A stretch of 64,000 nt of DNA from the NCBI GenBank assembly GCA_012727955.1, contig JAAYGB010000008.1, positions 70,637 through 134,636 of the forward strand. The letters run 5' to 3'. Within the stretch, counting starts at the first letter, position 1; the number at the start of each line of letters is the position of its first letter. Positions 30,976 through 51,214 of this stretch are shown here, piece after piece. The notes beneath the pieces are model-generated. The model made no database searches and was not told the origin of the DNA. It saw nothing but the letters and a program-made list of their open reading frames with translations. Position numbers and translations under genes: made by a program. Source of the stretch: Bacillota bacterium (GTDB lineage Bacteria; Bacillota; Limnochordia; DTU087; JAAYGB01).

Positions 30976-31622
30976 TATTTGTCCTGAAGATGAACCACCA
31001 AGAGCTTGCCTGCATGGATTTTCACCGTGGCTACACTTTCGATCATCCGGTTACTGTTTCCCAAGGAGGATCCAAAGGCTAGGGTTCCGTCCCGTAATTC
31101 ATAGTACAAACCGGTAGTGAATATGCCGGAAACCTCTGGGGTCAGAGGAATCAGCGACACCCAGTCCCCAACTTGACCCTGAATCTCTATCTGTGAATCA
31201 ATCACCTGCAGGCGCTGTCTGCCGGAAATAATCTGCACCTTGCGATGGGCTCCTTGGCTTAACATGAAGATATTACTGAGCATGTGATCCACTCTTCCGC
31301 CCAGCGCGCCCAAGATGACAATTTCCTCGACCTCAAGTCCCAGGGCGTAGTCTAGGGCCAGCTCCCCATCGGTCTGGTCCTTTTCCACGGGAAAGATGGA
31401 TAGCTCAACGCCCCTGTTCTGGATCTGTTGCTGGAGGATCGGGGATATGGAATCCATATCCCCGATCACTAAATCCGGTACCCATCCTAACTCACCGGCG
31501 TGTTCGGTGCCTCCATCGGCACAGATGAGAAAGTCGTCACCTTGAAGCTGAAAATCACCGATATCCAGCTCACCGTGGAGCAGGATGACTGCCCGTTTGA
31601 TCCCCGCCTTTACCTTCTTCAC
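30975..31622 (-). CDS. thiN: Thiamine pyrophosphokinase
   Basis: TPK catalytic and thiamin-binding domain pattern (GGTEHAGELGWVPDLVIGDMDS). Overlaps the thiT stop by 4 nt (ATGA). Confidence 0.85.
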   Translation of the reverse strand: MKKVKAGIKRAVILLHGELDIGDFQLQGDDFLICADGGTEHAGELGWVPDLVIGDMDSISPILQQQIQNRGVELSIFPVEKDQTDGELALDYALGLEVEEIVILGALGGRVDHMLSNIFMLSQGAHRKVQIISGRQRLQVIDSQIEIQGQVGDWVSLIPLTPEVSGIFTTGLYYELRDGTLAFGSSLGNSNRMIESVATVKIHAGKLLVVHLQDK

Positions 31623-32125
31623 TCACTTCGCTCCTTTGACCACAAACCTGTGCGCATGATCACCAGCATAATGATGATGGTCAGAACCAGCTGCGGAACC
31701 AGAAAGGTTGCATTGTAGCCAATGGAGTAGGCCCAGACGTTTTGGCCCTCAGGAGCATAGGAAGCCCAAAAGATTACTCCCGCCAAGGTATGAATCACTA
31801 ACCGACCGACACTAGCTACGACTATGCCAAGGATAGGTCGAGCTGAAAAAACCCCGGCTATTCCCAATACCGCAAAGGGCAAGGGATAATCCAACAATAA
31901 CTGAAGGGGATGAATTACATAGGCATCGCCCAACAGGTTGAGAAGCCCCAGAACAGCTCCGGCCCAAGCAGCAGGTTTCCACCCCGACCGAAAGGCCAAA
32001 TAGAAAAGGGGAACCATCTCCAAGGTAATGGAGCCCCCGTTGGGCCTCCGATACAAGCGAATCAGACTGAGGACAAAGGCAAGAGCTGCCGTTACCCCAA
32101 TCTCCGTCAACATCTTCGTCTCCAT
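31619..32125 (-). CDS. thiT: ECF transporter S component for thiamine (ThiT-like)
   Basis: About 168 aa, 5-6 TM integral membrane protein directly downstream of a TPP riboswitch. Start chosen at ATG 32125 (METKMLTEIG). The longer ORF-track N-terminus would overlap the riboswitch expression platform. Confidence 0.65.
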   Translation of the reverse strand: METKMLTEIGVTAALAFVLSLIRLYRRPNGGSITLEMVPLFYLAFRSGWKPAAWAGAVLGLLNLLGDAYVIHPLQLLLDYPLPFAVLGIAGVFSARPILGIVVASVGRLVIHTLAGVIFWASYAPEGQNVWAYSIGYNATFLVPQLVLTIIIMLVIMRTGLWSKERSE

Positions 32126-32247
32126 TTTTCTCTTCACTAAAATAATACCCCCTGTGTCGGCCGCCGGACAGGCTCCCATCCCATCGGTTGCTAACAACAC
32201 AAATGCCATCCCGTGATAGTGAAAGGATGGCATCGATAGTCAACTGT

Positions 32248-32336
32248 CCACCGCTTCCCTTCGCAGGCATTGTCCTAACAGGTTCTAAGGGTCAGGGATG
32301 AAAATCCCACTCTCAGCCAATAAGCTCCCCTAGCGG
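32248..32336 (-). promoter_or_regulatory. TPP (thiamine pyrophosphate) riboswitch
   Basis: The minus strand reads CUAGGGGAGCUUAUUGGCUGAGAGUGGGAUUUUCAUCCCUGACCCUUAGAACCUGUUAGGACAAUGCCUGCGAAGGGAAG. This matches the THI-box consensus GGGGnGC, GGCUGAGA, ACCC, GAACCUG, AAUGCCnGCG and AGGGA. Putative terminator hairpins follow at about 32141-32215. Confidence 0.85.
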
Positions 32337-32444
32337 CCAATATTTATTTTTCGGTGATTAGCGTCATCACGACGGCAATCACATCCACAGACTACTTCGC
32401 TGATGGCAGAGAATATCCTGCTAGATCGGGACCCTCTTCTTAGA

Positions 32445-33287
32445 TTATATGCCATCGCCCAGGAAAACCGGTCCTAAGAGAACCAAGAGCAAGGAGGGAA
32501 AGACAAACAGAAGTAAAGGAAACATGATTTTGATAGGTGCCTTGCCAGCCTCCCCTTCGGCAGTAGCTGACTGCTTCATTCGGCTTTGGTGGGCCACAAC
32601 CCCCAAAATACTGCCTATGGAGGTGCCCAGCTTCTGTCCCTGAATTAGAGTAAGCACAAAGGAAGTCACATCGGGATGATCAAGTCTGTCGGCCAGGGAC
32701 CTTAGTGCCTGTTCCTGGGATGTACCCAAGCGGATTTCCTGCAGCACTCGACCCATCTCCCGATACAATGGTCCCCGATCGGCAAAGCCAGCAACAACAC
32801 CGAGGGCACCCTCAAAGGATAACCCCGCCTCGGTAGCAACCAGCATCAGATCAATTACCCGGGGCAAGGATTGCTGCACCTGTCCTTGCCGTTTTCTGTA
32901 CAGGCTAGACAAATACAGATCCGGGACAAAGAACCAGATACAGCCGAACACCGCGGCCAGGATGAAGTCACCGGCTATCACTCCTAGAATGATACCCAGA
33001 AGAGCAAAGGATACCTTTGCACCCACCACCGTTGAATAGGACAAATTGCTTAACCCAGCCTTGAGGATTTGCTGTTCCACATCGGATTTTCGGGGCCACG
33101 AGAACCACCGAGTATAGTGCCGCCCTACCGAACTGGCCCAGGCCAGCAAGTAGGCTCCTAAATTGGGCCTCTGTTCCCTGTTACCCTGGACAAACCTCCT
33201 CCACCACTTGAGACTCAAGGTCCAGGCCAGGGATTGCACCACAGCGACGACAACTAGAGCTCCAGTGCAGGCAATCAGATATTTCAT
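32445..33287 (-). CDS. tadC: Tad pilus assembly inner-membrane protein TadC (T2SSF domain)
   Basis: T2SSF-type polytopic membrane protein; last gene of the tad cluster. Confidence 0.75.
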   Translation of the reverse strand: MKYLIACTGALVVVAVVQSLAWTLSLKWWRRFVQGNREQRPNLGAYLLAWASSVGRHYTRWFSWPRKSDVEQQILKAGLSNLSYSTVVGAKVSFALLGIILGVIAGDFILAAVFGCIWFFVPDLYLSSLYRKRQGQVQQSLPRVIDLMLVATEAGLSFEGALGVVAGFADRGPLYREMGRVLQEIRLGTSQEQALRSLADRLDHPDVTSFVLTLIQGQKLGTSIGSILGVVAHQSRMKQSATAEGEAGKAPIKIMFPLLLFVFPSLLLVLLGPVFLGDGI

Positions 33288-33309
33288 ACCTATTCCACAG
33301 CCTTCCCGA

Positions 33310-34137
33310 CTAGTAGCTCAACTGCGAAATTCGATGAACCATCACCAATCCCACCACCTCCAGGACTGCCGCCAGCCCAAGGAGCACTCTTCCCAGGGGC
33401 CGGTGAAACAAGGGAGCTACATATTCCGGCATCATTTTAGACATCACCATTAGCAAAATCACTGGAAGCAAAGCCACTACTACCGCGGTTAGCCGACCTT
33501 GGGCCGTCAAGCTGTGTAACTTGTCTGCCAGGCGATGGCGCTCACGGATGGTGGCAGCAACGGTTTCCAAGATTGCCGGCAGATTACCACCGGTCCTGCG
33601 CTGAATAGCTACGGCCATCACCACGGTTTCAAAGTCCTCAGACTCCATCTCCACAGCTAACTGCTCCATTGCCTCAGTCACGTCCACTCCAAGATTCACC
33701 CTGCTCACCATGGTCTCGAAGGCCGTGCCCAAGGGTTGGGGCACTTCTCTAGCCACCATCGCCAAGGCTTGCACCAGGCTAAATCCGGCGGTCATCGCAT
33801 TGCCCACCAGACCTAATGCGTCGGGAAGCTGCTGCTCCATACGCTTTTTCCGTCGGGCTGCCATCCAGGCTTTCAGAAACCTCTGACCAACGAAGCCCCC
33901 AGCTCCCAAAAGCAAAGACAGGAAGGGGCTGGCCATGACCATCCCCATGACAGCCCCCACCAGCCCAAGGGTCACAGCCAAAACCCGGTCTCGACTTAGT
34001 TTAGCTGCCAGGGATAGGCCCCTGCGATCATGCCTAGTCCCGCTCCCTTGCCGATGCCCCTTCCTAGTTCTGGCTTCCATTAGCAATAGGCTCCAAAGCG
34101 CCAATCCACCGAGACTACAAAGCAACAACCGCATCAT
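33310..34137 (-). CDS. tadB: Tad pilus assembly inner-membrane protein TadB (T2SSF domain)
   Basis: T2SSF fold. Start ATGATG overlaps the upstream stop (ATGA coupling). Confidence 0.75.
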   Translation of the reverse strand: MMRLLLCSLGGLALWSLLLMEARTRKGHRQGSGTRHDRRGLSLAAKLSRDRVLAVTLGLVGAVMGMVMASPFLSLLLGAGGFVGQRFLKAWMAARRKKRMEQQLPDALGLVGNAMTAGFSLVQALAMVAREVPQPLGTAFETMVSRVNLGVDVTEAMEQLAVEMESEDFETVVMAVAIQRRTGGNLPAILETVAATIRERHRLADKLHSLTAQGRLTAVVVALLPVILLMVMSKMMPEYVAPLFHRPLGRVLLGLAAVLEVVGLVMVHRISQLSY

Positions 34138-36269
34138 CGGGCAGACACCGAATCCCGTGTCTCGGCAGGCCAAGGCAATCCCATGGCAAGAAAGTCAGCC
34201 GCCGTTTGGCTGCGGGAACTGGTTTGAACAAAGTCTCCTTGTACACCTAACTCCTCATCATAGCCGGTCTGCTGGAACCTAAACAGCTCCCGGAGCATCA
34301 CGTGCCCCTCCTCAATGCCCGTTACTTCAGCAATGGTCAAGACCTTCCGTGAACCATCTTTGAGTCGGCTTTGGAAGATTATCACATCGATGGCAGAGGC
34401 AATCTGTTCGCGAATTGCCCGCAGGGGAAGGTCCACCCCTGCTAACAAAATCATCGTCTCCAAGCGACTGACACAGTCCTGGGCACTGTTGGCATGGATC
34501 GTGGTCAAACTTCCATTGTGGCCGGTATTCATCGCTTGCAGCATGTCGATTACTTCATCGGAACGGCACTCGCCGACTATAATCCGATCCGGTCTCATTC
34601 TGAGGGCGTTCTTCACCAGTTCCCTGATAGTTACTTCACCCTTGCCCTCGACATTGGCAGGCTTGGCCTCAAGCCGACACACATGCTCCTGCATCAGCCT
34701 CAACTCTGCCGCGTCTTCGATGGTCACAATCCTCTCATCGGCGGGAATAAACCCCGACAAAACATTGAGCAGAGTTGTCTTTCCCGAGCCGGTACCTCCG
34801 GCAATAATGATGTTTTTCCGAGCCAACACACAACACTGAATAAACTGGGCCATGGCGTCGTTGAGAGAGCCCATCGCGATCAGATCGTCGACGGTAAAGG
34901 CCTGACGGGCAAACTTGCGAATGGTCAATATGGGGCCATTGAGAGCCAGTGGCGGAATAATGGCATTGACCCTGGAACCATCGGGAAGCCTTGCGTCAAC
35001 CATGGGACTACTTTCATCGATTCTTCGGCCCAGGGGCCCGACAATTCTTTCAATTACTTGCGACACTGCCATATCGCTGGCAAAGGTCAACGGCGTCTTC
35101 TGCAATTTCCCCTTAGTCTCGATATAGATCTGTTGACTTCCATTGACCATAATCTCGGTCACAGAGTCATCGGCTAGCAAGGCCTCTAGGGGTCCCAACC
35201 CCAGTATCTCATCGGTCAACTCAGCGATTAGGTTGTTCCTTGCCTTTTCAGATAGCGCCCCCTCCTGCCCTTGTAATTCCCTCAGGCAAAGACGGCGAAT
35301 CTCATCTCGCAGCTCCTGGCTGGCCGACAACTCCTCCCATGGCACAGACAGATCCCACTGAGAGGCTAACAACTCCTGGACTATCCTCTGGTGCAACTGA
35401 GACTTTAGTGCCGGAACCCCGGCAGCCGACGACAGCGGGGTTCCTTCCTCGTCACCACGCCTTCTCAAGTTTCTTCGTCGTCGTTTGCGTCTCCGGTATT
35501 TTTCCAGGAGGGAGACGGATTTTGCCGGTCGAGGCGAGACCGCAAGTTCTTGAGTTAGATAGTCAAGACTGCGCACAATGGCCGATTTTCCATAGGTTCG
35601 AGAGAAAAGGCATCGCTTCTCCAAAGCAGTGGCCAGCAGGTCTTCATCTTCATTGGCAACCTCAAGGGATTCCACCTCCAACACCCTTTTCACCTGAGCC
35701 GCCACCTCCGACGCGGTGGACTCGGGAACTCGATTGACCACGCAAGTGATGGGACCCACACCTCCGGCCGTCAATTCCTGCAGCTGTAGAGCTGCTGCCC
35801 GCAGTGACAGGGGGCTCGGGGTCGTAACCAGGGCCAATCGATCGGTCAAACTTAGGGCAGACATGATCGGCAAACTCAACTCGTGGCCGAGATCTAGGAC
35901 TATGTAGGGGTAAATTTGACTAAGCAAGTGGATCAGCTTTTCCACATCGGCGCAGGTTGTTTGCTGCCAGACAACCTCGTCTGCCGGGCCTGACAGATGA
36001 TGAATCTTCCCATCGGCAGCGGTTACCATATAATCGGCAATGGCTTGCGTTTGCCATAGACTTTGATCCTGCCAACACTCCGTTACCGAACGACCTACTT
36101 TGATTCCCAGAACTGCCTCCATGGTCTTACCGGGATCCCAGTTCAAGGACAAGATGCAAACTGCTTCATCGCTGTGATCGCACAAGAGTCCCGCGAAGCC
36201 TGCGGCCAGAGTGGTAGTGCCCACTCCACCCTTAGCCCCCAGCCAGCCGATAATCCTTCCCAAGGTCAA
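34134..36269 (-). CDS. Fusion of a TadZ/CpaE-like ParA-MinD-type domain (N-terminal) and the TadA/CpaF secretion ATPase (C-terminal)
   Basis: The N-terminal 270 aa carry a deviant Walker A, GAKGGVGTTTLA, that lacks the second lysine. A polybasic linker RRRKRRRRNLRRR follows. The C-terminal 400 aa are a VirB11/CpaF ATPase with GGTGSGKTTLLN Walker A and Asp/His boxes. Probable start TTG 36269 with GGAGGTG RBS. Confidence 0.8.
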   Translation of the reverse strand: MTLGRIIGWLGAKGGVGTTTLAAGFAGLLCDHSDEAVCILSLNWDPGKTMEAVLGIKVGRSVTECWQDQSLWQTQAIADYMVTAADGKIHHLSGPADEVVWQQTTCADVEKLIHLLSQIYPYIVLDLGHELSLPIMSALSLTDRLALVTTPSPLSLRAAALQLQELTAGGVGPITCVVNRVPESTASEVAAQVKRVLEVESLEVANEDEDLLATALEKRCLFSRTYGKSAIVRSLDYLTQELAVSPRPAKSVSLLEKYRRRKRRRRNLRRRGDEEGTPLSSAAGVPALKSQLHQRIVQELLASQWDLSVPWEELSASQELRDEIRRLCLRELQGQEGALSEKARNNLIAELTDEILGLGPLEALLADDSVTEIMVNGSQQIYIETKGKLQKTPLTFASDMAVSQVIERIVGPLGRRIDESSPMVDARLPDGSRVNAIIPPLALNGPILTIRKFARQAFTVDDLIAMGSLNDAMAQFIQCCVLARKNIIIAGGTGSGKTTLLNVLSGFIPADERIVTIEDAAELRLMQEHVCRLEAKPANVEGKGEVTIRELVKNALRMRPDRIIVGECRSDEVIDMLQAMNTGHNGSLTTIHANSAQDCVSRLETMILLAGVDLPLRAIREQIASAIDVIIFQSRLKDGSRKVLTIAEVTGIEEGHVMLRELFRFQQTGYDEELGVQGDFVQTSSRSQTAADFLAMGLPWPAETRDSVSAR

Positions 36270-36309
36270 CACTGTCACCTCCGGCAATTTGTAGCTCTGC
36301 CTAGCTTTC

Positions 36310-38676
36310 CTACGGACCAGTGATACTGGGAGTCAAGATGATAACCAAATCTGACTGACTCGATTGATACTGCTCAGAGCGAAATAGCTGTCCCAAGATG
36401 GGCAAACTCCCCAACAATGGTACTTTGCTGATCATTTTCCGCTGCTCTTCTCCCAACAATCCACCAATGACAAGGGACTGACCGCTATCCATAAACACCT
36501 GAGTCTGTGCCTTGCGGACTCTGACCGCTGGAATTTGCACTCCATCGATGACTACGGCATTGTTCCAGTCCAGGAGACTAACTTCTGGTTCAAGCTGGAC
36601 ACATATTTTGTCCCCAACCAGTTCTCCAGAAACACTGAGCTTGACTCCATAGTCCCGCCATTCAATGACAGTCTCTTCTTCCGCCTTAACAGGAAGAGGA
36701 ATTTCTCCTCCGGCGAGAAAACTTGCAGTTTCACCGGAGGTAAAGACCAAGGTAGGAGCCGCCAGGGTACGTACTTTACCCTCTGCTGCCAGAGAGGTGA
36801 GGCTGGCCGTCAGTTCTCTGTTACCTAAAGTTAGGGGAACACTAACCGCCAACTCTCCCTCGGCAACCTGTAGCGCCCAAGAAGATGGAGGGGCACTATC
36901 GGAGGTAGCAAACCAGTTGACTCCAAGCTCTCGCAGGCTGGTGTCCTCAATTTCCACCACCCTGACCTGGACCTGAATCTGAGGCTTCACCGCAGACACC
37001 TGAATGGCACTAACCACTTTGGGAACCAACTCTTCTGCTAAGGATAGGATCCTATCCCTTTCCGCCTGGGAGCACTGTCCCGACAATAACACCATGTCAT
37101 CGACATAGGCCGCCTCTACTCCTTGTGGAAGAACGCCATTTAGATACTCCTGAACCCTCTGGTCGATGCCATCGCTGACAACGGATAGGGCATCAAGCCA
37201 CTGGGGATGAAGGTTGGAGATCACCTTGGCGACGTGGTCGTAGGTGGCCCGGGAGACCTGCCCCATGGCCAGGACCTCGCCCCCCTCAAGGTACAAGACC
37301 TCAACGCCAGTTTCTGCCAATAGCTGCTCAAGAGGTAAGCCTGCTTTCAGGGCTTTATTTTGCACCCCAACGGCATTAATGACAGGGTAGTCTAGGACAT
37401 CGACCAGCTGCTGCAATCGCTCCCGCTGTCCCTCTCTGGAAACGGTACCCAGCAAGATGACGGCTGAGTCCAGGGGCTCCACAACTACTTGCTCATACCC
37501 CCAGGTCTGGATAATTCGATTCAGTGTCTTGACAATTGACCTTTGGTCTATCCTTGGCTCCTTGGGCGATTGCACCAACAGACCATTAATCACCTTCGGC
37601 GCAAAGGCAGCGGCGATCTTCTCCGCCACCTCTGCCCGTTCCGGGCAGCTAACCTGACCATACAGTAACAGGCCTTCATCCACTACCTCGAGCTTTACCT
37701 CCGGCATCGCCAGAATCCGGGACAGGCGGGACAAATCGATACCGCCTTCCTGGCGCTGGTGATCTAACTCCCGATTCTTTCCCAACTGCCAGATCCTAGC
37801 CGGGGCAACTTCAACACCGTCTACTACAGGACCATATTGCTCCGCGGCCTTGCGCAGGGCCATCCTTTCCGCTTCGCTATCTACAGCCCCCCGGAGAACT
37901 AGCAAGTTGCCCACCCGCTGAACCCAAGCCCGAGCAAGACCCAGCTCAACGGGAAGCCGCAGTGCCTCTTGCCAGCTTTGATCCTCTACCGCCACCATCA
38001 TGACGGGGGTCAATCCCAGGTGAGTGGCCAGCTCCTTGAGTGCAGGGATATCCTCGGCCACAGCTACCGTGCCGCGGATCAACAAGACATTCTCAGCCCG
38101 CTGGAACTCTAGCTGGGGAAACAAGGAGCTGGTCAGCCGGGCAAAGGCCCCTTCCGCCGCGGCATAACTGGATTCTGCCGTAGTTGCCTTGGTAACGGTT
38201 AAGTCCAGTGTATCGGGCCACAGGGTTTGTAAGGCTTTTTCCAGCATCGAGCGACTTGACTGATCGACTTCCCCGGAGACAATCAAGGTAGTGCCTACCC
38301 ATGTAAACTGACAATCTGAGCCAACTACTTGCATCAGTTCCTCCAGCGACGGGCGGGGCTTGGGTAAGACATTGACCCGGGAACTTATCCGATCATCCCC
38401 CGTCCAGACAACCAATGTCGTTGACCCAAAGCCCTTGCCATTGAGAAGGAACTCATCCCGTCCAGACACCACCACATCGGCTACAGTCTCATCGCCGACA
38501 GCCACGGTGGTCAACCCCGGCACAGGAAAGACCTGGGACTCACCGACGATGAGCTCAATTTCTCCTGGCAGACTACTGGCTTCCGCCCAGCTGCCGGCAA
38601 TCGCTATCAAGAGACTGAGACAACTAATCAGTCTCCACAACGAAGACCTGAGAACCCCGGATGACGGTAATATCAT
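36310..38676 (-). CDS. cpaC: CpaC/RcpA-family secretin carrying seven tandem BON-like domains
   Basis: Signal peptide, then a pilus-formation N-terminal domain (IELIVGESQVFPVPGLTTVAVGDETVADVVVS...GKGFGSTTLVVW). Seven repeats of about 60-75 aa follow, with pattern VxVVxEPLDSAVILLGTVSxEGQRERLQQLVxVLDYPVINAVGV. The C-terminal secretin domain ends ...KVPLLGSLPILGQLFRS. GGGGAGGGAG RBS. Confidence 0.8.
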   Translation of the reverse strand: MILPSSGVLRSSLWRLISCLSLLIAIAGSWAEASSLPGEIELIVGESQVFPVPGLTTVAVGDETVADVVVSGRDEFLLNGKGFGSTTLVVWTGDDRISSRVNVLPKPRPSLEELMQVVGSDCQFTWVGTTLIVSGEVDQSSRSMLEKALQTLWPDTLDLTVTKATTAESSYAAAEGAFARLTSSLFPQLEFQRAENVLLIRGTVAVAEDIPALKELATHLGLTPVMMVAVEDQSWQEALRLPVELGLARAWVQRVGNLLVLRGAVDSEAERMALRKAAEQYGPVVDGVEVAPARIWQLGKNRELDHQRQEGGIDLSRLSRILAMPEVKLEVVDEGLLLYGQVSCPERAEVAEKIAAAFAPKVINGLLVQSPKEPRIDQRSIVKTLNRIIQTWGYEQVVVEPLDSAVILLGTVSREGQRERLQQLVDVLDYPVINAVGVQNKALKAGLPLEQLLAETGVEVLYLEGGEVLAMGQVSRATYDHVAKVISNLHPQWLDALSVVSDGIDQRVQEYLNGVLPQGVEAAYVDDMVLLSGQCSQAERDRILSLAEELVPKVVSAIQVSAVKPQIQVQVRVVEIEDTSLRELGVNWFATSDSAPPSSWALQVAEGELAVSVPLTLGNRELTASLTSLAAEGKVRTLAAPTLVFTSGETASFLAGGEIPLPVKAEEETVIEWRDYGVKLSVSGELVGDKICVQLEPEVSLLDWNNAVVIDGVQIPAVRVRKAQTQVFMDSGQSLVIGGLLGEEQRKMISKVPLLGSLPILGQLFRSEQYQSSQSDLVIILTPSITGP

Positions 38677-39472
38677 GTCTCCCTCCCCTTCTTGCCTCTT
38701 CTTTCTGCGATGGCACTGCTGGGGTCCCGTCTAACTGGAGCAGTGACTCCAGGGTTATCGCCGAAGTCACCCTCCCGGCTAGGGAATCAGCGGCTGATCC
38801 CAAGGAAACTACCCGCAGCTGACCAAAGGCGTCGGCCAGTGCCAAGCGATGGACGGTAACATCATCCACCGACAGAACCAGCTGAGTGGTCTCCGAAAGG
38901 CCAGGATAAGACAAAGGCGCCCCCTCACCGTAGTCACTGCCTAACACATCGACTACCTCGACTTGACTGGCAATCACTACACTCTGCTCCGAAGCATCGA
39001 TCCGGGCGGGGAAGATCCCGATGATATCCACCAACTGTCCCCGCTGGAGATGACGGGCCTGGCGGGTCGGAACAGAAACGACAAAATGCTTACCTCCTGG
39101 CAAACCGGAGGAATCCCCCTCCCGCTGGTCATCCTCATGGGCAGCAAATTCTAGATGGTCTCTGGTGAGCACCGAACCCGCCGACAAGTCGGTGGCGGTA
39201 ATCATCCCTGCTACCACCAATCCATCGATCCAGCCCAGGGGCAATTGCGCCACCGGCCGAGTCTCCAAGAGGATGTGATCCCCGGTGATTGTAGTCCCCG
39301 CGGCCACATCCTCGACCAACACTGCAACCCGAGCTACCACCCCTTCTCCCGTCGACTCCAGCTGAGCCAGGTAAAAGTAGAGCATAACCGCAAAGACCAG
39401 AGCCAACACTCCCGCTACCCAGGGTTTTCGTAGGTAGGACGGAATTCCGCGGATCAGAAGGGAAGAGGCCAT
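38624..39472 (-). CDS. cpaB: Flp pilus assembly protein CpaB/RcpC (SAF domain)
   Basis: N-terminal TM followed by a SAF-like domain (VLVEDVAAGTTITGDHI). Directly upstream of the secretin, which it overlaps by 53 nt. Confidence 0.7.
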   Translation of the reverse strand: MASSLLIRGIPSYLRKPWVAGVLALVFAVMLYFYLAQLESTGEGVVARVAVLVEDVAAGTTITGDHILLETRPVAQLPLGWIDGLVVAGMITATDLSAGSVLTRDHLEFAAHEDDQREGDSSGLPGGKHFVVSVPTRQARHLQRGQLVDIIGIFPARIDASEQSVVIASQVEVVDVLGSDYGEGAPLSYPGLSETTQLVLSVDDVTVHRLALADAFGQLRVVSLGSAADSLAGRVTSAITLESLLQLDGTPAVPSQKEEARRGGRHDITVIRGSQVFVVETD

Positions 39473-40587
39473 GGCAACTCATCTCTGATGTCAATCTCAG
39501 GCCCGGCAAAGGTATAGCCCATAATCACCGTTCCTTCTGGACCGCTGATTGCCCCAAGAAAACACACGTGGCGCTCCCGGAAGTAGACGCCAAAATCGAA
39601 GTCGGTAATTTCCCCCAGCGATTTAAGTACCTCCCGGTCCCCCCCGAATATCTGGTTAAAGCCATGCCCCATGTCCTTCAGCCGTGTTGCCGCATCCTTG
39701 AGGAGTTCAGGATTCAGGAAGGGAAGCCCCACCCAACCCTCTTGAGCCAATCGTTGCCGATACCAATGAGTGACAGCCGCAAAACTATCTCCAGACTTCA
39801 TCATGACTAAGGTTGCTTCGTTCAGAAACCCACTCCGGTTGGGAGGTCCCTCGACGCGGTCTAAAACGATTTTTAGCACGTCAGAGCCCCGTGGATAGAT
39901 AGGCAGCACCAACCTCTGCAGGTACTCTTGCGGTGGAGTCAGATGGGTACCATTTCCGGCAATGACCGTCTTTACCAAGGAGACAATCTTATCATCGTCA
40001 TCGACATCGTCGTAGTCGGGGTAGCTATCCGGCGGGAGTATGGCCCGCAGTTTCGGGTCGTGATCCGGATTGGCATACACCTGCCATTCAATGGTGTATC
40101 CAGGCCCCTTAGCCCGCCGGGAGTCCACCACTATGTAACGCATTACTTCCTTCGCCTCTTCCAGAGACAGCGGCTCGGTCAGATAGGGATCCTTTTTTGC
40201 TTGCTCGTAAATGTATTCCGCATTCTCCTCCACCCAATCATAGGCTTCTACCCGCAGTGCTCCACGGGAAAAGTGGTTTCGCCAATGGCGGGCCGCCCTT
40301 TCTGCCGGTATGGTCATGGGCATCCACAACTCATATCGCCAGACATCATCCTCGAAAAACCAGCCACCCACCGAGAAAAGCATCCCATCGGGGTGAGGTA
40401 AGTCCACGCCTAAGGGTGCTGCCATGAGTGCCTCGAAGGTTAAGCACAAAGCTATCCCCAGCGGGAAAATAAGTCTACCAAGGTACCGAGCAATGGAACA
40501 CCATAAGCGTCGGATTTCATTTCTTCCCGGAGAGCTACCTTTTCTCCCAGTAAATGCTGAAACATGGGCATAACGGGAAAGTCGCAA
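39454..40587 (-). CDS. Hypothetical protein embedded in the tad operon (single hydrophobic segment, acidic DYDDVDDDD stretch)
   Basis: Long ORF with codon usage matching its neighbours and no recognisable motif. Start uncertain: the ORF-track GTG 40626 and my preferred TTG 40587 (GGTGGTG RBS) both overlap the 3' end of the upstream tadE-like gene, by 175 or 136 nt, in another frame. Confidence 0.4.
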   Translation of the reverse strand: MRLSRYAHVSAFTGRKGSSPGRNEIRRLWCSIARYLGRLIFPLGIALCLTFEALMAAPLGVDLPHPDGMLFSVGGWFFEDDVWRYELWMPMTIPAERAARHWRNHFSRGALRVEAYDWVEENAEYIYEQAKKDPYLTEPLSLEEAKEVMRYIVVDSRRAKGPGYTIEWQVYANPDHDPKLRAILPPDSYPDYDDVDDDDKIVSLVKTVIAGNGTHLTPPQEYLQRLVLPIYPRGSDVLKIVLDRVEGPPNRSGFLNEATLVMMKSGDSFAAVTHWYRQRLAQEGWVGLPFLNPELLKDAATRLKDMGHGFNQIFGGDREVLKSLGEITDFDFGVYFRERHVCFLGAISGPEGTVIMGYTFAGPEIDIRDELPWPLPF

Positions 40588-40913
40588 GATATCACCACCC
40601 GATCCATTGAAAGAGTTCGTCTGCACACCACTTCGTAGTGCAGTCCCGGCAACGCAGAATTACTGTTGAGGAAGTTCTCGACCTGGCTAACGGCCTCACC
40701 CGCGGTCCGGCTAGCCACCAACCGAATACCTTGTCTAGCTGCCATCGCCATCAGAATCTTGGTGTGGACAATGGCACCAAACTGAATCATCGCAAAGATG
40801 ACAAACAGCAGCAGCGGCAACACTATGGCCATTTCAACCAAGGCCTGTCCATTCTCGCTCCCTGCCCTCAGACTCAACAAGAGCCCTCTCCCCTTTGTTG
40901 CTGAAATTGTCAT
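40452..40913 (-). CDS. TadE/TadF-like pseudopilin
   Basis: TadE-like N-terminus GQALVEMAIVLPLLLFVIFAMIQFG. Confidence 0.7.
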   Translation of the reverse strand: MTISATKGRGLLLSLRAGSENGQALVEMAIVLPLLLFVIFAMIQFGAIVHTKILMAMAARQGIRLVASRTAGEAVSQVENFLNSNSALPGLHYEVVCRRTLSMDRVVISCDFPVMPMFQHLLGEKVALREEMKSDAYGVPLLGTLVDLFSRWG

Positions 40914-40921
40914 GCCCAGGG

Positions 40922-41668
40922 CTAATCTTTTTCTTTGTCCTTCTCCTTGTTCTCCTGATTGAGCTTCTCGCCGAAATAATTCCTCACCCAGTCCACCCCC
41001 TCCCCAATGCCACCGGCATGGAATTTGACCAGGCTCGCCTTGAAGTCAGGCCAAACCAAGCCGCTACCGTGGACCGCTGACTCCGAGATTGCCACCATCA
41101 CCCCACCCCTATCGGACTTGTCCCTCAACTTACTAAGCAGGGGTAAAGGTTGTCTAACCGCAGCCCCACCCATAATTATGAACCGCTTGCCGTAGGGTAA
41201 GTTATGAGTTCGTCGCTGGGCGTCCACCATGTACTCCTTCCAAAACATCCACCAACGCTTTTTCGGCTCTCTCACCTCAAGATCCGGCATCGCCACCCCT
41301 CCGAGGAAATTCAACGGCACTACCACCGCGGCTCCATTGCGAAGCCCTGTTTCCGTCGCGACGAGAATGGCCAGGACAGGAGCGCTGGCGACTACCATGA
41401 TCTGCGCTTGTTTCGCCATCTCCCTGTGGGCAGGTTCGGTGGCCGAAACACGGGCCCAATTAAGCTGCACTACTAAGTTCAAACAAGAAGCTAGACAGGC
41501 TCCGCCGGCTTGGGCACTGGCGTCCACGGCATTGGCTAGCCGAATCTTAGCGACCATGGTCTCCCCGAGATAGTACACCATCACCGTGGCCAGCATCAGT
41601 ACCGCCACTGCCACCGCGGCCATCACCATCACTTGCCCATCTTTAGCTGTAATGATCTTGCTAATCAT
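40922..41668 (-). CDS. TadG-like pilus assembly protein
   Basis: N-terminal TM plus Tad_N-like segment (VMVMAAVAVAVLMLATVMVYYLGE...LANAVDASAQAGGA). Lys/Glu-rich C-terminal tail. ATGA overlap with the upstream gene. Confidence 0.5.
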   Translation of the reverse strand: MISKIITAKDGQVMVMAAVAVAVLMLATVMVYYLGETMVAKIRLANAVDASAQAGGACLASCLNLVVQLNWARVSATEPAHREMAKQAQIMVVASAPVLAILVATETGLRNGAAVVVPLNFLGGVAMPDLEVREPKKRWWMFWKEYMVDAQRRTHNLPYGKRFIIMGGAAVRQPLPLLSKLRDKSDRGGVMVAISESAVHGSGLVWPDFKASLVKFHAGGIGEGVDWVRNYFGEKLNQENKEKDKEKD

Positions 41669-42189
41669 AGGAAAAACCGTCCCAAATGCCTTAACCCGGG
41701 GATGGACTCGAAGAACCGACCGAAGATGTTGCTAGAATACATTCTGGCGTTTTCCTGGGGCAGCGAATAGGTGACCTGACTCTGTCCCGTAGCATCCTCT
41801 ACCATGGACAGCTGCAGACCAAACCAACTCATTTGGCCTGAGAAAACTCGCTTGACGGTGCTGAGTAACCAGGGCTGCGTACGAGTGACGGTGACCACAA
41901 TGTCCTTGCCCTGCTTCTTTACCGATCCCGTCAAGATCAGACCGCGAACTCCCGAGCCCCAACCGTTGATCACTCTCGCTACAGGAAGTAGATAACTTGA
42001 GGATGGATTGTGTAACACTGCTCGGCGGGCCTCCTCGTAGGCACCGTACTTGACCAGCATCCCATCCAGCAGATGCAAACTCATGGCAAATCCTCCCCAC
42101 AGGACTAACATCACTACCGGCAAGGCAATCACGAACTCCAGCACTCCCACTCCCTCTTCCGAGCGCCAACCGTACACAGCAATTGCCAC
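41665..42189 (-). CDS. TadE-like pseudopilin
   Basis: EEGVGVLEFVIALPVVMLVLWGGF TadE motif. GTG start, or alternative GTG at 42177. Confidence 0.7.
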   Translation of the reverse strand: MAIAVYGWRSEEGVGVLEFVIALPVVMLVLWGGFAMSLHLLDGMLVKYGAYEEARRAVLHNPSSSYLLPVARVINGWGSGVRGLILTGSVKKQGKDIVVTVTRTQPWLLSTVKRVFSGQMSWFGLQLSMVEDATGQSQVTYSLPQENARMYSSNIFGRFFESIPGLRHLGRFFL

Positions 42190-42194
42190 CTCCG

Positions 42195-42803
42195 TTAGCG
42201 TGATACCCCCTGAAGACTAAGGATGATAATCCCACACAAGCTGATCCAGAATCCCAGGGGAACACTAATTCCCAACACCTGGCCTTCCATACCCAAGGCG
42301 CAGGATGCCATCCGTCGCAATAACTGTTTCACCTGGCCCCGTTGCCGGGCAATTATCAGCACATGGATGCCGGAGACTATGGCACCCCATACCGCAATCC
42401 GCAGAGCAACTTCTAGTGGCACCAACACACCCAAGCAAGCCAGGAGCTTGACATCGCCTCCTCCGATGCCTCCCCAGCGATACACCACACAGAAGGGCAA
42501 GGCCAGGACAAAGCCTCGAACCAAGGCCCCAAAGCCTGCCAGCCAGCCACCATCGGCAAGGTTCAGCACCAGCCCCAGTATGAGCACCGGAGCTAGGACC
42601 CCATTGTAGATCCGCCGATACCGCCAGTCAGTATACGCGACGATGACCAAAAACCCCAGGGTCAACAGCCATAGTCCATCGAAACCACCTGCCTCACTCC
42701 CGAACTCTCCAGGGATGGAAAAAGGGGCAAAGCCAATGGCCCTGCCCCTCCAAAAGGGTGCCGAATACCGTTGCTCCATGCCCCAGGTTAACACACCAGC
42801 CAT
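42195..42803 (-). CDS. cpaA: Flp prepilin peptidase CpaA/TadV (A24 aspartic peptidase)
   Basis: DWRYRRIYN and GGGDVKL motifs carry the two catalytic Asp. The N-terminal extension in the ORF is questionable. Confidence 0.8.
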   Translation of the reverse strand: MAGVLTWGMEQRYSAPFWRGRAIGFAPFSIPGEFGSEAGGFDGLWLLTLGFLVIVAYTDWRYRRIYNGVLAPVLILGLVLNLADGGWLAGFGALVRGFVLALPFCVVYRWGGIGGGDVKLLACLGVLVPLEVALRIAVWGAIVSGIHVLIIARQRGQVKQLLRRMASCALGMEGQVLGISVPLGFWISLCGIIILSLQGVSR

Positions 42804-42880
42804 GCCCTTCGAGAGTTATGTGATTTTTTGATTTTTGTTAGATAGTCAACAACCCAACTAAGTATCAACTTACGCCATCG

Positions 42881-43048
42881 TCAACCGCCGATGGTTTCAG
42901 CTAACTGAAGGAACTTCCCCGATATACTGCTTCCCAGAACGCGGACGGCCCCCAGACCCACTACAGCAATCAGTGCCGTCAGCAGTCCGTACTCGGCCAT
43001 GCTTTGTCCGCTTTCGTCCTGCCACAGTTCTCGGAGAAATGCTCGCAT
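42881..43048 (-). CDS. flp: Flp/Fap family pilin (55 aa; below ORF-track cutoff)
   Basis: Manual translation gives MRAFLRELWQDESGQSMAEYGLLTALIAVVGLGAVRVLGSSISGKFLQLAETIGG. The G/QSMAEY Flp processing motif sits at mature positions E5 and Y6. GGGGGT RBS. Confidence 0.75.
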   Translation of the reverse strand: MRAFLRELWQDESGQSMAEYGLLTALIAVVGLGAVRVLGSSISGKFLQLAETIGG

Positions 43049-43108
43049 CATCCTACCCCCTTTCCCCGTGAACTAGCACCCTTATTGGCAAAGTAAATCT
43101 GTATTTAA

Positions 43109-43300
43109 CTAGAACACATTAACGTAGTAAATCAGCTCTAGAATCATGCGGTCACACATCTTCAGTAGTACCCCCTTCATCTTCTCCGACCACAAGACAA
43201 AGGGAATTGCCACCACAGCCAGAAGCAAGGCGTATTCAGCAACACTTTGCCCCCCTTGGTCCAGCAACAGCGAGGCTGCAGAGACCTTTATTCTTGCCAT
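43109..43300 (-). CDS. flp: Flp/Fap family pilin (64 aa)
   Basis: MARIKVSAASLLLDQGGQSVAEYALLLAVVAIPFVLWSEKMKGVLLKMCDRMILELIYYVNVF, with G/QSVAEY motif. This is the C-terminal part of ORF-track 43109..43483, restarted at ATG 43300. Confidence 0.75.
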   Translation of the reverse strand: MARIKVSAASLLLDQGGQSVAEYALLLAVVAIPFVLWSEKMKGVLLKMCDRMILELIYYVNVF

Positions 43301-43334
43301 CGCCTTCGACCTCTCTTCTTCTGGGTTCAACCAC

Positions 43335-43363
43335 ATTATACTCGGTGCGCCGTACATAGTCAA
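43335..43363 (-). promoter_or_regulatory. Consensus sigma-A promoter driving the flp-tad operon
   Basis: Minus strand TTGACT, a 17-nt spacer, then TATAAT, about 35 nt upstream of the first flp start. An A/T-rich UP-like tract lies immediately upstream. Confidence 0.6.
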
Positions 43364-43384
43364 GCGGAATTTTACTTTTTTTCG

Positions 43385-43425
43385 CAAAAAAATGCTCGGC
43401 TGGACTTCTCGTCCTCCGCCGAGCG
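43385..43425 (-). terminator. Terminator-like hairpin after rpe (minus strand)
   Basis: GCTCGGC(17-nt loop)GCCGAGC followed by ATTTTTTTGCG. Confidence 0.4.
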
Positions 43426-43445
43426 TTACTAGCAGCGCTTTCTTG

Positions 43446-44147
43446 TTACTGGTTCCCTTGACAGGCGAAACGCAGATCAGCAATGGTGCGATCCCGATGG
43501 GCGCTGCGGAAAATCGAGGAACCTGCTACCAATATGTTGGCTCCCGCTTCAACCACCAATGGAGCTGACACCAGGTCAATTCCCCCATCGACCTGAATGT
43601 CCACCTGCAGCTTCCGCTCCATAATTATTCTCCGCAATGCCCTAATCTTGGAAACCATCCCAGGGATAAACTTCTGGCCCCCAAAGCCAGGATTGACGGT
43701 CATGATCAGCACCTGATCAAGGTCCTCCAGGATATACTCCAGGACGTCCAAGGGTGTTGCCGGGTTTAGGGCAACGCCAACCCTAACGCCCAGAGCCTTG
43801 ACCAATCCCACAGAGCGGTGCAGATGAATGCAGGCTTCCGCTGACAGAGTCAAGGCAGTGGCACCGGCCTTAACAAAATCCTCAACATAACGATCGGGAT
43901 CGGCAATCATCAGGTGTACATCCAGGGGCTGATCCGTAAACTTGCCAATGGCCTCTACAACTCCTGGACCGAAGGTGATGTTGGGAACAAAGTGTCCATC
44001 CATCACATCAATATGTAACATGTCCGCTGCAGACACCGATGCGATCTCTTCTCCGAGCCGCATAAAATCCGCAGCCAGCAAAGAGGGGGCGATTTTGACA
44101 TCGGTCCCCCTCGAAGCATTATCTGAGTTAGTATCTGTTTTCTTCAT
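43446..44147 (-). CDS. rpe: Ribulose-phosphate 3-epimerase
   Basis: IAPSLLAADF...HIDVMDGHFVPNITFG...DGG motifs. Confidence 0.9.
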   Translation of the reverse strand: MKKTDTNSDNASRGTDVKIAPSLLAADFMRLGEEIASVSAADMLHIDVMDGHFVPNITFGPGVVEAIGKFTDQPLDVHLMIADPDRYVEDFVKAGATALTLSAEACIHLHRSVGLVKALGVRVGVALNPATPLDVLEYILEDLDQVLIMTVNPGFGGQKFIPGMVSKIRALRRIIMERKLQVDIQVDGGIDLVSAPLVVEAGANILVAGSSIFRSAHRDRTIADLRFACQGNQ

Positions 44148-45029: not shown

Positions 45030-47210
45030 TTACGGAAATGCCTGCTCCGATACCAGTCGATTGCCGATGTAAACCTGGATTCTCGCGTCGCCACCTTGGC
45101 CACTGACCTGGCGAGTGACCACACTGCCACCCTTATGCACACCACGATAGGCCTCCCTGGCTCCCAAGTCATCGATCACCAGGATGACAACCTCGGTGTC
45201 TGGTCCCGGCGGGATTACAACCTGTACTTCAGCCTGTTGGAAAGAAGGTTCACCGCCAGTGGTTTCCCTTGCCTCGAGCTCCTCCTCAGCCTCAGTTTCC
45301 GGCTGCTGGGGCTCTGGCTCACCGATCTGATCCTGGGGAGGCAGCTGTTCATCCTCCCTACCACTGGGTTCTATGGGCAGTTCAGGCTCTTGTGGTGCTT
45401 CTTCAACGGCCCCTTGCCCCGGCTCCTCATCCCGGTCTTCGTCATCGGGTTCTTCGATCCCGTGGCCCTGATCCTCGTGGAGCTGGGTACCGGGACGACC
45501 TAAGCTATAGACAAAATCCACGGTATCTCCCGGGGCAACGGTGGTTCCCGGCGCCGGGTTTTGAGAAATTATGTGCCACCGGGGAATCGATATTGAGGTA
45601 TCGCCCCAAGCGTTACCCAGGACCAGTCCCAATTCAGCCAGACGCTCCTTGCTGGCCTCCAAGGTCATGTTCCGAAAATCCGGAAGGGTTAAATTACCTG
45701 TAGTAACTCTCTCACTACTGACACTGATGTTTACCGCCGAGCCCTCCTCGAGATAGGAGCCGGCCTGGGGTTCTTGGGCAATCACCTGATCCAAGGGCGC
45801 CTCAACCCCAACCACAGGAGTTTCAATGCCCACCACTAGCCCCGCCTGCGTAATGCGCAAGCGAGCATCCCGCACCGTTAATCCCACTAGCGAAGGCACT
45901 TCCACCATTCTAGGTCCTTTGCTCACAGTGACAAACACCGTGCGATACATCTTAATCCGTCGATTAGGACTGGGATCCTGGTTGAGAACCTGTCCCGCGG
46001 GAGCCTCGGTACTGTAAACCTCTCGTTCCACCGCAAGCTTCAGTCCATGCCTTTCCAACAACTCCCGGGCCTCGTTCTGCGTCCTTCCGACGACGTTGGG
46101 CACAACTACCTCTTCGGGAAAAATCAACTGGGGAATCTTGGTGGCGCCCCAGATCAACAGCCCAATAAACAATAGGGACAGCAGGACAATCGAACGCACC
46201 CGCCCCTTGCGACGCACTGGTCGTGTCTCCTTTGGTGGTTCCTCGTCCCTGATCCGCGTCTGGGCCTTGGTTTCATCGCCCAACCTATGGATCATCGTGC
46301 GACCAGTGGTCTCGGCAACGGACTCAATCAAGGTAGTGGCCTCCACTTCCGGTGACGCCATTCCCGGGTGTCTGCCAGTAGTGGTCAAGGATTCTGCCAC
46401 CCTTTGCAGATCTTGCAGCATCTCGGAAGCAGTCTGATAGCGCTCCTTTAGATCCTTGGCCAACGCCTTGACAACGATTCTGTCTAGTTCCCGCGGAATA
46501 CTGGGATTCAGCTGCCGAGGAGGTTTGATCGGCTCCTGTACGTGTTGCAGGGCGATGGCTACCGGCGTATCCCCAGTAAAGGGCAAGGTTCCCGTGAGCA
46601 TTTCATATAACAACACACCCAGGGAGTATAGGTCCGACTGCTTTGTCGCCATCCCGCCTCTGGCCTGCTCCGGGGAAAAGTATTGGGCAGTTCCCATCAC
46701 AAAACCAGTCTGAGTCAATTCAGAATAACTTGCTGCCAAAGCGATACCAAAATCCGTTACCTTGACCTGATTATCTTCGGTGATAATTATGTTATGGGGC
46801 TTAATGTCCCGGTGGACCAAATGATGACGATGTGCGTGCTCCAGGGCCATGGCCACTTGCTGGGCAATATGGACAGCAGTGCCCAAGGGAATCGATTGCC
46901 GGCGAATGATGTCCTTGAGGTTACGGCCTTCCACATACTCCATGACAATAAAATACACGTCATCTTCCTGACCCACATCGTAGATGTTGACTACGTTGGC
47001 ATGGGACAGACTGGCAGCGGCTTGGGCTTCCCGGCGAAAGCGCTCGACGAATTCCCGATCACCGGCGTACTGCTCCCGCAGCACCTTAACCGCGACAAGA
47101 CGACCCAGGAGCATATCCTTCGCTTTGTAAACCAAGGCCATGCCGCCTGCGCCAACTTTCTCTAGTATCTTGTATCGATTCGAAAGGACCTTCCCCAGCA
47201 AATTCGTCAC
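45030..47210 (-). CDS. prkC: Ser/Thr protein kinase with PASTA repeats
   Basis: Hanks kinase motifs (GAGGMALVYKA, HRDIKPHNI, DFGIA), a TM segment, three PASTA repeats, and an acidic low-complexity C-terminus. Confidence 0.9.
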   Translation of the reverse strand: MTNLLGKVLSNRYKILEKVGAGGMALVYKAKDMLLGRLVAVKVLREQYAGDREFVERFRREAQAAASLSHANVVNIYDVGQEDDVYFIVMEYVEGRNLKDIIRRQSIPLGTAVHIAQQVAMALEHAHRHHLVHRDIKPHNIIITEDNQVKVTDFGIALAASYSELTQTGFVMGTAQYFSPEQARGGMATKQSDLYSLGVLLYEMLTGTLPFTGDTPVAIALQHVQEPIKPPRQLNPSIPRELDRIVVKALAKDLKERYQTASEMLQDLQRVAESLTTTGRHPGMASPEVEATTLIESVAETTGRTMIHRLGDETKAQTRIRDEEPPKETRPVRRKGRVRSIVLLSLLFIGLLIWGATKIPQLIFPEEVVVPNVVGRTQNEARELLERHGLKLAVEREVYSTEAPAGQVLNQDPSPNRRIKMYRTVFVTVSKGPRMVEVPSLVGLTVRDARLRITQAGLVVGIETPVVGVEAPLDQVIAQEPQAGSYLEEGSAVNISVSSERVTTGNLTLPDFRNMTLEASKERLAELGLVLGNAWGDTSISIPRWHIISQNPAPGTTVAPGDTVDFVYSLGRPGTQLHEDQGHGIEEPDDEDRDEEPGQGAVEEAPQEPELPIEPSGREDEQLPPQDQIGEPEPQQPETEAEEELEARETTGGEPSFQQAEVQVVIPPGPDTEVVILVIDDLGAREAYRGVHKGGSVVTRQVSGQGGDARIQVYIGNRLVSEQAFP

Positions 47211-47234
47211 CTCATACCGTTCCCCGTCTGCTGC

Positions 47235-49947: not shown

Positions 49948-49984
49948 CTACCAGCACCATCCCCTTGTCTTCTCCCACCGGCGG

Positions 49985-50692
49985 CTAATCCAATCCAAAG
50001 GCAACTACCGTAATATTATCCTGGCCACCCCGCTCATTGGCTAAGTCAACCAATCGGTCCGCTGCCTCTTGTAGGTCAGGGGACTGATGGATAATCGCAA
50101 AAACTTCTGCCGTAGATACCACATCCACGAGACCATCGGTGCACAGCAGGATCACATCCCCTGGGCCAGGCTCCACCGTTGACAGGTCAACCGTCAGATT
50201 GGGCTGGGTACCCAAGGCCTTGGTTAGGACGTTTCGGTGGGGATGGCGACGAGCGTCACCTTCAGTGAGACATCCATCTCTGACTAGTTGTCCCACTACT
50301 GAGTGATCATTAGTGAGCTGTTTTCCCTCGCCCCGATGACTAACCAAATAGGCCCGAGAGTCACCGACGTGACCAATCAACACCCTCTGGTCGACTACCT
50401 TGGCCAATGTCACCGTTGTTCCCATGCCCCTTAGCTGCGGCTTTGCCTGCGCTGCCTGCCAGACGGCCTGGTTAGCCAGGGCAATCGGACGTTCAAGGTC
50501 GGCAAGGGAATGTACCAAGTCCCAATCGTAACCCACCAGGGCATCGACGGCAGTCTGACTGGCTATCTCACCGCCGTTGTGGCCTCCCATCCCATCGGCA
50601 ACAATAAACAAGCCGAGCACCTCATCGAAAAAACCCACGTCTTGATTAACCCGTCTTACTTTTCCGACGTCAGACCTGGCACCAATTCTCAT
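49985..50692 (-). CDS. prpC: PP2C-family Ser/Thr phosphatase
   Basis: DGMGGHNGGEIAS and the C-terminal DN metal-binding motif. Confidence 0.9.
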   Translation of the reverse strand: MRIGARSDVGKVRRVNQDVGFFDEVLGLFIVADGMGGHNGGEIASQTAVDALVGYDWDLVHSLADLERPIALANQAVWQAAQAKPQLRGMGTTVTLAKVVDQRVLIGHVGDSRAYLVSHRGEGKQLTNDHSVVGQLVRDGCLTEGDARRHPHRNVLTKALGTQPNLTVDLSTVEPGPGDVILLCTDGLVDVVSTAEVFAIIHQSPDLQEAADRLVDLANERGGQDNITVVAFGLD

Positions 50693-51196: not shown

Positions 51197-51214
51197 TCCT
51201 TTGCTGAAGGAAAG

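Follow-up and report, generated by a model that had tools for sequence, protein, structure and literature searches.

The 64,000-nucleotide stretch of contig JAAYGB010000008.1 (Bacillota bacterium, assembly GCA_012727955.1) analyzed here, called the window below, carries a complete Tad/Flp pilus locus of twelve co-oriented open reading frames (ORFs), all on the minus strand at 32445-43300, with a promoter that extends the locus to 43363. Our results indicate that this locus probably represents a functional, vertically inherited Tad type IVc pilus of a diderm, sporulation-gene-bearing member of the Bacillota, most probably belonging to the Limnochordia in the broad sense. An earlier note on the same DNA had described these twelve genes as a complete locus including CpaB and a secretin; every one of the ORFs was found as described, and searches of the window ORFs with Pfam and NCBIfam hidden Markov model (HMM) profiles, under curated family cutoffs, gave matches for nearly all of them. 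The locus is distinguished by a secretin belonging to a poly-BON family, a fusion of a receiver-less TadZ to TadA, a second Flp gene and an orphan gene. Two unusual points were absent from the earlier note: that the secretin has seven BON repeats and that TadZ has lost its receiver.

The secretin, of the CpaC/RcpA type, is encoded at 36310..38676 (like all the features of the locus that follow, on the minus strand) and its 788 residues comprise a signal peptide, a beta-sandwich, seven BON repeats and an N3 plus secretin core. A secretin domain had been predicted for this gene, and PF00263 does match residues 629-785 (36322..36792) at 1.2e-37, with 129.5 bits against a cutoff of 27.5 and profile positions 2-167 of 169 covered, so that the C-terminal domain, the predicted outer-membrane pore, is present over nearly the whole profile. 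Residues 38-99 (38380..38565) correspond to a pil_N/VirB9-like beta-sandwich (PF13629, T2SS-T3SS_pil_N, 7e-14), and residues 108-562 (36991..38355) form seven tandem BON-type domains of the alpha-beta-beta-alpha-beta fold, as defined by DSSP of an AlphaFold2 (AF2) model and by Pfam BON (PF04972, 5.6e-10, 39.8 bits against a cutoff of 27). This model, a monomer built from a 4-sequence alignment (pLDDT 62, pTM 0.31), places the beta-sandwich at residues 39-104, the BON units at 108-164, 165-232, 233-290, 313-370, 376-440, 445-501 and 503-562, and the N3/secretin core from 566 to the end, with pLDDT values of mostly ~60-83 in the BON block. The seven units can be aligned with one another and share a conserved core, hhhxGxV...(E/D)R...A, which contains a Gly-x-Val. 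Foldseek searches related the pore domain to GspD, PilQ, pIV and RcpA-TadD (8odn), the beta-sandwich to the N-terminal domain of VirB9/TrwF (TM score 0.51-0.53, normalised to the target), and the BON repeats to OsmY, DolP and BonA as well as to the ring-building domains of the type III secretion proteins YscD, CdsD and PrgH. OsmY and DolP have the same fold in each BON unit, but they are soluble proteins or lipoproteins that bind phospholipids and contain two BON domains, whereas here seven are fused to a pore. A lipoprotein assignment was considered for the secretin and rejected, as the sequence lacks a canonical lipobox with a sufficient h-region and homologues do not conserve the cysteine.

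Close full-length relatives of this secretin are few, with only three (55, 47 and 42% identity) among 1.84 billion library representatives, the closest of them from a Limnochordia MAG (metagenome-assembled genome). The architecture itself is more widespread: among the 150 best representatives, an HMM built from the seven BON units detected 4-11 copies in 26 proteins of 717-1437 residues, while ordinary CpaC proteins of 370-540 residues scored 1 or 2 copies. Every poly-BON secretin with a named source comes from a Limnochordia, Firmicutes or Bacillota MAG, and these proteins are annotated merely as 'BON domain-containing protein' or 'CpaC'. Canonical CpaC consists of the beta-sandwich, N3 and barrel (PMC13170226), and 'BON + secretin' is one of the architectures listed in Table 1 of PMC7806268. 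No description of a poly-BON Tad secretin was found in the literature searched (Limnochordia or Firmicutes secretin, and BON with secretin and CpaC), and the type appears to be undescribed so far.

We infer, without proof, that the seven BON domains build a long periplasmic conduit, or a stalk anchored in peptidoglycan or membrane, that links the outer-membrane pore to CpaB. A more specific and clearly tentative extension is that the domains stack as successive rings, giving a continuous tube of ~15-20 nm from the outer-membrane pore to the CpaB ring that would span the periplasm independently of a pilotin. Under this proposal, such secretins might have evolved in Limnochordia-type diderm Firmicutes for a wider or peptidoglycan-rich periplasm tethered by OmpM, the number of repeats (4-11) might track envelope thickness and, together with the covalent TadZ-TadA motor, they might define a structurally distinct Tad subclass. 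The PilQ proteins of Thermus thermophilus and Deinococcus are type IVa secretins in which numerous ring domains are stacked in the periplasm. They come from diderms of the Terrabacteria with OmpM/SlpA tethers and share the extended N-terminal array, but the likeness is one of analogy only, since they serve type IVa pili rather than Tad pili and their N-domains are of different types. In D. radiodurans, PilQ traverses both membranes (PMC9388160).

The second unusual component is the motor. TadZ and TadA are encoded as a single protein of 717 residues (34134..36287), with a ParA/MinD-like TadZ part without receiver at residues ~10-250 and a TadA/CpaF ATPase at ~340-710. The core ATPase is neither frameshifted nor pseudogenised, as the ORF is intact and contains the Walker A motif GGTGSGKTT, a GECR read as Walker B and MNTGHNGSLTTIHAN read as the His box; its TadA part matched T2SSE at 4.9e-66 and TIGR03819 at 4.5e-101 (338 bits, slightly under the cutoff of 373). 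The TadZ part gave weak ParA/MinD matches (AAA_31, 22.9 bits against 27; TIGR01969, 7.8e-10) and opens directly at a deviant Walker A, GAKGGVGTTT, so that the receiver domain is missing. It is followed by the highly basic linker RRRKRRRRNLRRR. The junction of the ATPase modules (residues ~250-295, 35400-35540), an extremely basic stretch (KYRRRKRRRRNLRRRGDEEG), could be a remnant of the membrane-targeting helix reported at the C-terminus of CpaE or a flexible linker. The fusion is found in all three members of the clade formed by the window and its relatives, a Limnochordia MAG that is the nearest named genome (L001/L003) and a further locus (L002), both with housekeeping identities of ~65% to the window; its length is 710 residues in L001 and 721 in L002. 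It is lacking in L004 and in L008, and the window protein is collinear over residues 10-708 with the separate TadZ and TadA of the latter. A fusion in L004 had been suggested by one tblastn high-scoring pair over both genes, but it was rejected because these are two ORFs in the same frame split by a stop. No description of a fusion between TadZ and TadA was found in the literature searched. In Caulobacter, six CpaE dimers form a ring around the CpaF hexamer (PMC13170226), and by analogy the fusion would hard-wire this association and is in agreement with that contact.

Most of the locus agrees with the characterized systems of Caulobacter crescentus (cpa), Pseudomonas aeruginosa and Aggregatibacter (tad/rcp). 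It shares with them the Flp motif G/xxxxEY, an A24 peptidase without methylase, TadE/TadG, CpaB/RcpC, a secretin with a VirB9-like sandwich, a TadZ/CpaE-like ATPase part, TadA/CpaF, TadB and TadC, in a gene order typical of the family (PMC13170226, PMC10499894). The differences are a secretin with seven BON domains where theirs has only the beta-sandwich and N3, the receiver-less TadZ fused to TadA, the orphan and the presence of two Flp genes. In addition, no match to the pilotin TadD/CpaO, RcpB, CpaD or CpaI was obtained among the ORFs of the locus (32445-43363) with Pfam and NCBIfam profiles. Gene content, intact reading frames, conservation and domain architecture can be read directly from the sequence. 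By analogy with these three systems, CpaA would process the TadE/TadG pseudopilins and both Flp prepilins at G/xxxxEY, and the TadB/TadC platform, driven by the hexameric TadA of the fused motor, would polymerise Flp into a filament. CpaB would act as an alignment ring anchored in the inner membrane, and the filament would leave the cell through the multimeric CpaC pore in the outer membrane. The BON array may take over the bridging roles of CpaI, CpaD, TadD or RcpB, and those of CpaI and CpaD are described in PMC13170226. As for the cellular role, adhesion or aggregation in communities of the anaerobic-digester type is likely on the same analogy.

Among diderm Firmicutes, secretin-bearing Tad systems were already known from Negativicutes and Halanaerobiales (Denise et al. 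2019, PMC6668835), whose hosts are, like the proposed one, Bacillota with an outer membrane, but their secretins 'lacked distinctive domain architecture' (PMC6668835). The earlier note had pointed to a comparison with the tad loci of Negativicutes and Limnochordia, and the two groups gave different pictures. An Acidaminococcaceae (Negativicutes) CpaC of 562 residues (L006) has one detectable BON repeat against seven here. In contrast, the secretin (P0155) of what we call the mainstream Limnochordia locus (L008/L009) has the same poly-BON architecture and is collinear with the window secretin over residues 16-787, at 27% identity. Its cluster covers at least 99 contig-index blocks and occurs in many MAGs named 'Limnochordia bacterium'. 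The mainstream locus shares the core flp-cpaA-tadE-tadG-cpaB-cpaC-tadZ-tadA-tadB-tadC, but its TadZ is separate and keeps the receiver (REC) domain, it has no orphan, no second flp and only one gene of the TadE family (there is no counterpart of tadE1), and it lies at another genomic site. At 7017-17278 of L008/L009, a DegS/DegU-like pair and an HD-domain gene precede the tad locus, and a DUF192 gene follows tadC. The locus also adjoins flgM-flgN-flgK, which suggests that pili and flagella are co-regulated in genomes of this type.

The locus lies in a Bacillus-like syntenic backbone, as the earlier note had proposed: the order priA...prkC-rsgA-rpe-thiN...recG...smc-ftsY-ffh...rnhB is that of B. 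subtilis, and Spo0A (NLV91281.1) is encoded at 53676-54557 (Spo0A_C, 2.2e-28). From its position between rpe and thiT-thiN, the locus had been regarded as an accessory insertion. The insertion part of this claim holds, since a scan with Rpe found 20 metagenomic loci that lack tad genes and have thiN immediately after prkC-rsgA-rpe, often with asp23-fakA next; compared with this widespread rpe-thiN order of Firmicutes, the locus is an insertion. These empty sites have rpe-thiN without thiT, and thiT with its riboswitch is thus a second departure from the common order. The accessory part of the claim did not stand. A recently acquired island would agree with the frequent transfer of Tad loci (PMC6668835), with rpe-thiN adjacency as the common state in those 20 Firmicutes-like loci and with the different site of the mainstream Limnochordia locus. 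On the other hand, L001/L003 and L002 hold all 12 genes in identical order, fusion included, at the identical rpe|thiT site, and the divergence of the tad proteins (TadZA 67-71% identity to relatives, TadB 58%, TadC 56-59%, CpaC 47-55%) is comparable to that of the flanking housekeeping proteins (Rpe 65%, RsgA 63-64%, PrkC 65-66%, FakA 71%). The GC content of the locus is not anomalous, and no integrase or other mobility gene, tRNA or repeat was found at its borders. Recent horizontal acquisition is therefore unlikely. Because site, order and fusion are shared with relatives and divergence is like that of the flanks, the insertion is, as far as sequence comparison indicates, ancient and predates the split of these lineages. 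With the mainstream Limnochordia locus located elsewhere and carrying a separate, REC-bearing TadZ, the rpe-site arrangement is, on the loci compared, specific to a sub-lineage. The same species recurs in other samples, given two near-identical fragments: a 2.7-kb piece of an independent anaerobic-digester metagenome (L010, LSQX01249592.1, 1-2748), which runs from rpe to tadG and is 98-100% identical to the window (97-100% at the protein level), and a 355-residue fragment in the protein library (P0137) that is 100% identical to the window secretin.

The other claim of the earlier note, that CpaB and the secretin next to sporulation genes suggest a diderm sporulating lineage, fits the labels of the nearest relative and of the secretin homologues, but an outer membrane is not unexpected in such a host, as it is established for the Limnochordia (PMC11456536, PMC7924749). 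The nearest named genome to the window is labelled Limnochordia, and Spo0A is 54% identical to those of Geochorda, Carboxydochorda and Limnochordales as compared with 51% to that of Syntrophothermus. Judged by the labels of the nearest relative at the National Center for Biotechnology Information (NCBI) and of secretin homologues, a host from the Limnochordia in the broad sense is probable, not proven. An outer-membrane gene cluster is reported for all 46 UBA genomes (Taib et al. 2020, as cited in PMC11456536), transmission electron microscopy of Geochorda and Carboxydochorda revealed diderm cells (PMC11456536), OmpM-type tethers occur in Limnochordia (PMC9388160), and Limnochorda pilosa is given as a Gram-negative spore-former (Watanabe 2016, as cited in PMC7924749). 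A diderm spore-forming lineage would thus fit the evidence, and a secretin would be expected in it, because the Limnochordia are documented as diderm and have sporulation genes. The opposite view is that the host is monoderm and that the secretin-like protein works in another envelope context, such as a channel through thick peptidoglycan or the double membrane between forespore and mother cell. BON and ring-building motifs also occur in sporulation channel proteins, and Spo0A is encoded in the window. Nevertheless, the pore domain at the C-terminus is a complete one of the usual type, its gene is embedded in a canonical tad operon and translationally overlapped with it under a vegetative-type promoter, and the named homologues are all Limnochordia or Bacillota MAGs, the former being diderm (PMC11456536), so a monoderm host is highly improbable. 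It is also very unlikely that, instead of an adhesive pilus, the locus encodes a Tad-like device for secretion or contact-dependent killing of the Myxococcus Kil or Bdellovibrio Tad type. Tad-like systems repurposed for prey killing are reported in PMC8460266 and bioRxiv 10.64898/2026.07.08.737194, and the locus has unusual extra parts in the orphan, the long secretin and a divergent second Flp; however, HMM searches of the locus detected neither effector or toxin genes nor Kil accessory genes of the FHA type, and its pilin, pseudopilins and peptidase are those of an ordinary Flp pilus.

Several points weigh against a vertically inherited Tad pilus in a diderm Limnochordia host. The class assignment depends on the taxonomic labels of relatives, and an outer membrane in this host is deduced from those relatives only. 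In a neighbour-joining tree of Spo0A, Limnochordia sequences are scattered and the clade of the window lies beside a group containing Syntrophothermus; as this leaves the class unresolved, the tree was not used as evidence. The locus has no pilotin (TadD), whereas Pseudomonas requires one for secretin assembly. TadE1, TadG, RcpC and the TadZ part scored below curated cutoffs, which makes these assignments partly synteny-based. Operon and secretin are known here as genes, and as the AF2 model shows a single secretin chain at modest confidence, a stack of BON rings is conjectural.

Much of the debate on how the outer membrane was lost or kept centres on diderm Firmicutes, and, Veillonella aside, the machines that span their envelope have hardly been studied. 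As diderm, sporulation-gene-bearing Limnochordia were already known, the step from secretin to outer membrane is largely a rediscovery, and the locus reveals neither a new envelope type nor a new kind of system. What it adds is that lineages of the Limnochordia type would assemble a Tad secretin unlike that of Proteobacteria or Negativicutes, with a long BON/ring-building array and no recognizable pilotin, and that in one sub-lineage the positioning ATPase and the motor have become a single protein. As a natural 'Rosetta stone', the fusion supports the CpaE-CpaF contact that cryo-electron tomography showed in Caulobacter, and the poly-BON secretin is a tractable target for cryo-electron microscopy on how secretins span atypical periplasms.

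Most of the remaining genes of the locus code for pilins, their peptidase, pseudopilins, CpaB and the platform proteins. Two flp genes had been proposed, and the second of them, flp2 (42881..43051, 56 residues, motif G/QSMAEY), is confirmed by PF04964 (3.9e-9, above cutoff) and is 74% identical to its relatives. The first, flp1 (43109..43300), codes for a divergent Flp-type prepilin of 63 residues (MARIK...) that had no Pfam match in the HMM search and is recognized from its motif, G/QSVAEY, and its conservation (52-53% identity in L002 and L003, at the equivalent position). The prepilin peptidase CpaA/TadV (42195..42803, 202 residues) belongs to the A24 family (PF01478, 2.9e-15), has the GGGD motif and has no methyltransferase domain. 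Three pseudopilin genes follow: tadE1 (41665..42189; TadE, 1.8e-4, 22.0 bits against a cutoff of 22.9), 44-59% identical in relatives; a tadG-like gene with an N-terminal Tad/TadG motif (40922..41668; PF13400, 6e-4, slightly under cutoff), with relatives at 48-58% identity; and tadE2 (40452..40913; TadE, 9.1e-13; NF041390). CpaB/RcpC (38624..39472), a periplasmic alignment protein with an N-terminal transmembrane helix, matched SAF at 1.3e-6, above cutoff, as well as RcpC at 1.8e-4 (21.8 against 28.8) and TIGR03177 at 6e-10 (38.7 against 71); the RcpC profile is also scored by its syntenic homologues. The platform proteins TadB (33310..34137) and TadC (32445..33287) both matched T2SSF (PF00482), at 5.4e-19 and 1e-14, respectively.

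The orphan between tadE2 and cpaB (GX030_02565, 39454..40425) has 323 residues as called by NCBI, in an ORF that is open to 40626. It matched nothing in Pfam, NCBIfam or PDB, including profile searches against PDB and Pfam to E = 10, and a word-index homology search of 5.8 billion proteins returned only the protein itself. Syntenic homologues in L001 and L002 are 26-31% identical, and conservation is limited to the clade. A single-sequence AF2 model (pLDDT 39) was unusable. The ORF stays open for 175 nt within the 3' end of tadE2 (40426-40626), and in 3/3 genomes a hydrophobic, signal-like segment lies directly upstream of the called start. The start, and likewise the predicted export, is thus uncertain as judged from these reading frames, and the protein is probably a clade-specific periplasmic accessory. 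A lipoprotein reading was rejected for the orphan on the same grounds as for the secretin, since a canonical lipobox with a sufficient h-region is lacking and the cysteine is not shared by homologues.

The twelve genes have the layout of a single operon, with a strong predicted promoter and coupled or overlapping starts. A consensus promoter had been noted, and the sigma-70-type sequence TTGACT-17 nt-TATAAT upstream of flp1 (43335..43363) has 11/12 consensus matches and is the top-scoring site within 31500-44000; the total of promoter sites in this region is not above shuffle expectation, so the site counts only as a consensus match. The ATGA and longer overlaps reported before are present as well. 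An ATGA joins tadE1 and tadG, the orphan and cpaB ORFs share 19 nt, and cpaB and cpaC overlap by 53 nt, an overlap that measures 50 nt in L001 and 53 nt in L002. Most likely tadB starts with the ATG at 34137, which gives an ATGA overlap with tadZA; the alternative TTG at 34173 would make it 40 nt. The locus is bordered by rpe (1.5e-78 by HMM) on one side and, on the other, by a thiamine pyrophosphate (TPP) riboswitch followed by thiT (ThiT, 2.7e-50) and thiN (TPK, 4.5e-31). The riboswitch (RF00059, 66.5 bits, 32239-32341, minus strand) lies between the tadC stop and thiT, and its location directly before thiT places the thiT-thiN pair under its own control. The tad transcript should stop in the ~100-nt gap ahead of it.

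Other observations concern the wider window. The sigma-factor ORF at 12938-13669 (minus strand), between a DUF3842 gene and rnc, which the earlier note called SigH-like, matched Sigma70_r2, with GerE and Sigma70_ECF below cutoffs. The ORF at 22295-23635 named 'ylbJ' matched the Gate domain only and is the sole large plus-strand gene of the window. A lone tRNA-Pro (CGG) at 53483-53559 (plus strand) lies between rlmN and spo0A, on the strand opposite to nearly all genes of the window. At 45030-51739 (minus strand), two FHA genes are followed by those for a PP2C phosphatase, FtsW/RodA, a penicillin-binding protein (PBP) transpeptidase and a PASTA Ser/Thr kinase, an order that matches the actinobacterial fhaA-fhaB-pstP-rodA-pbpA-pknB cluster and is found here within Bacillus-like synteny. 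In the window, the ORFs for FtsW and PBP share 137 nt, and in L002 they are called as one FtsW-PBP fusion of 915 residues.

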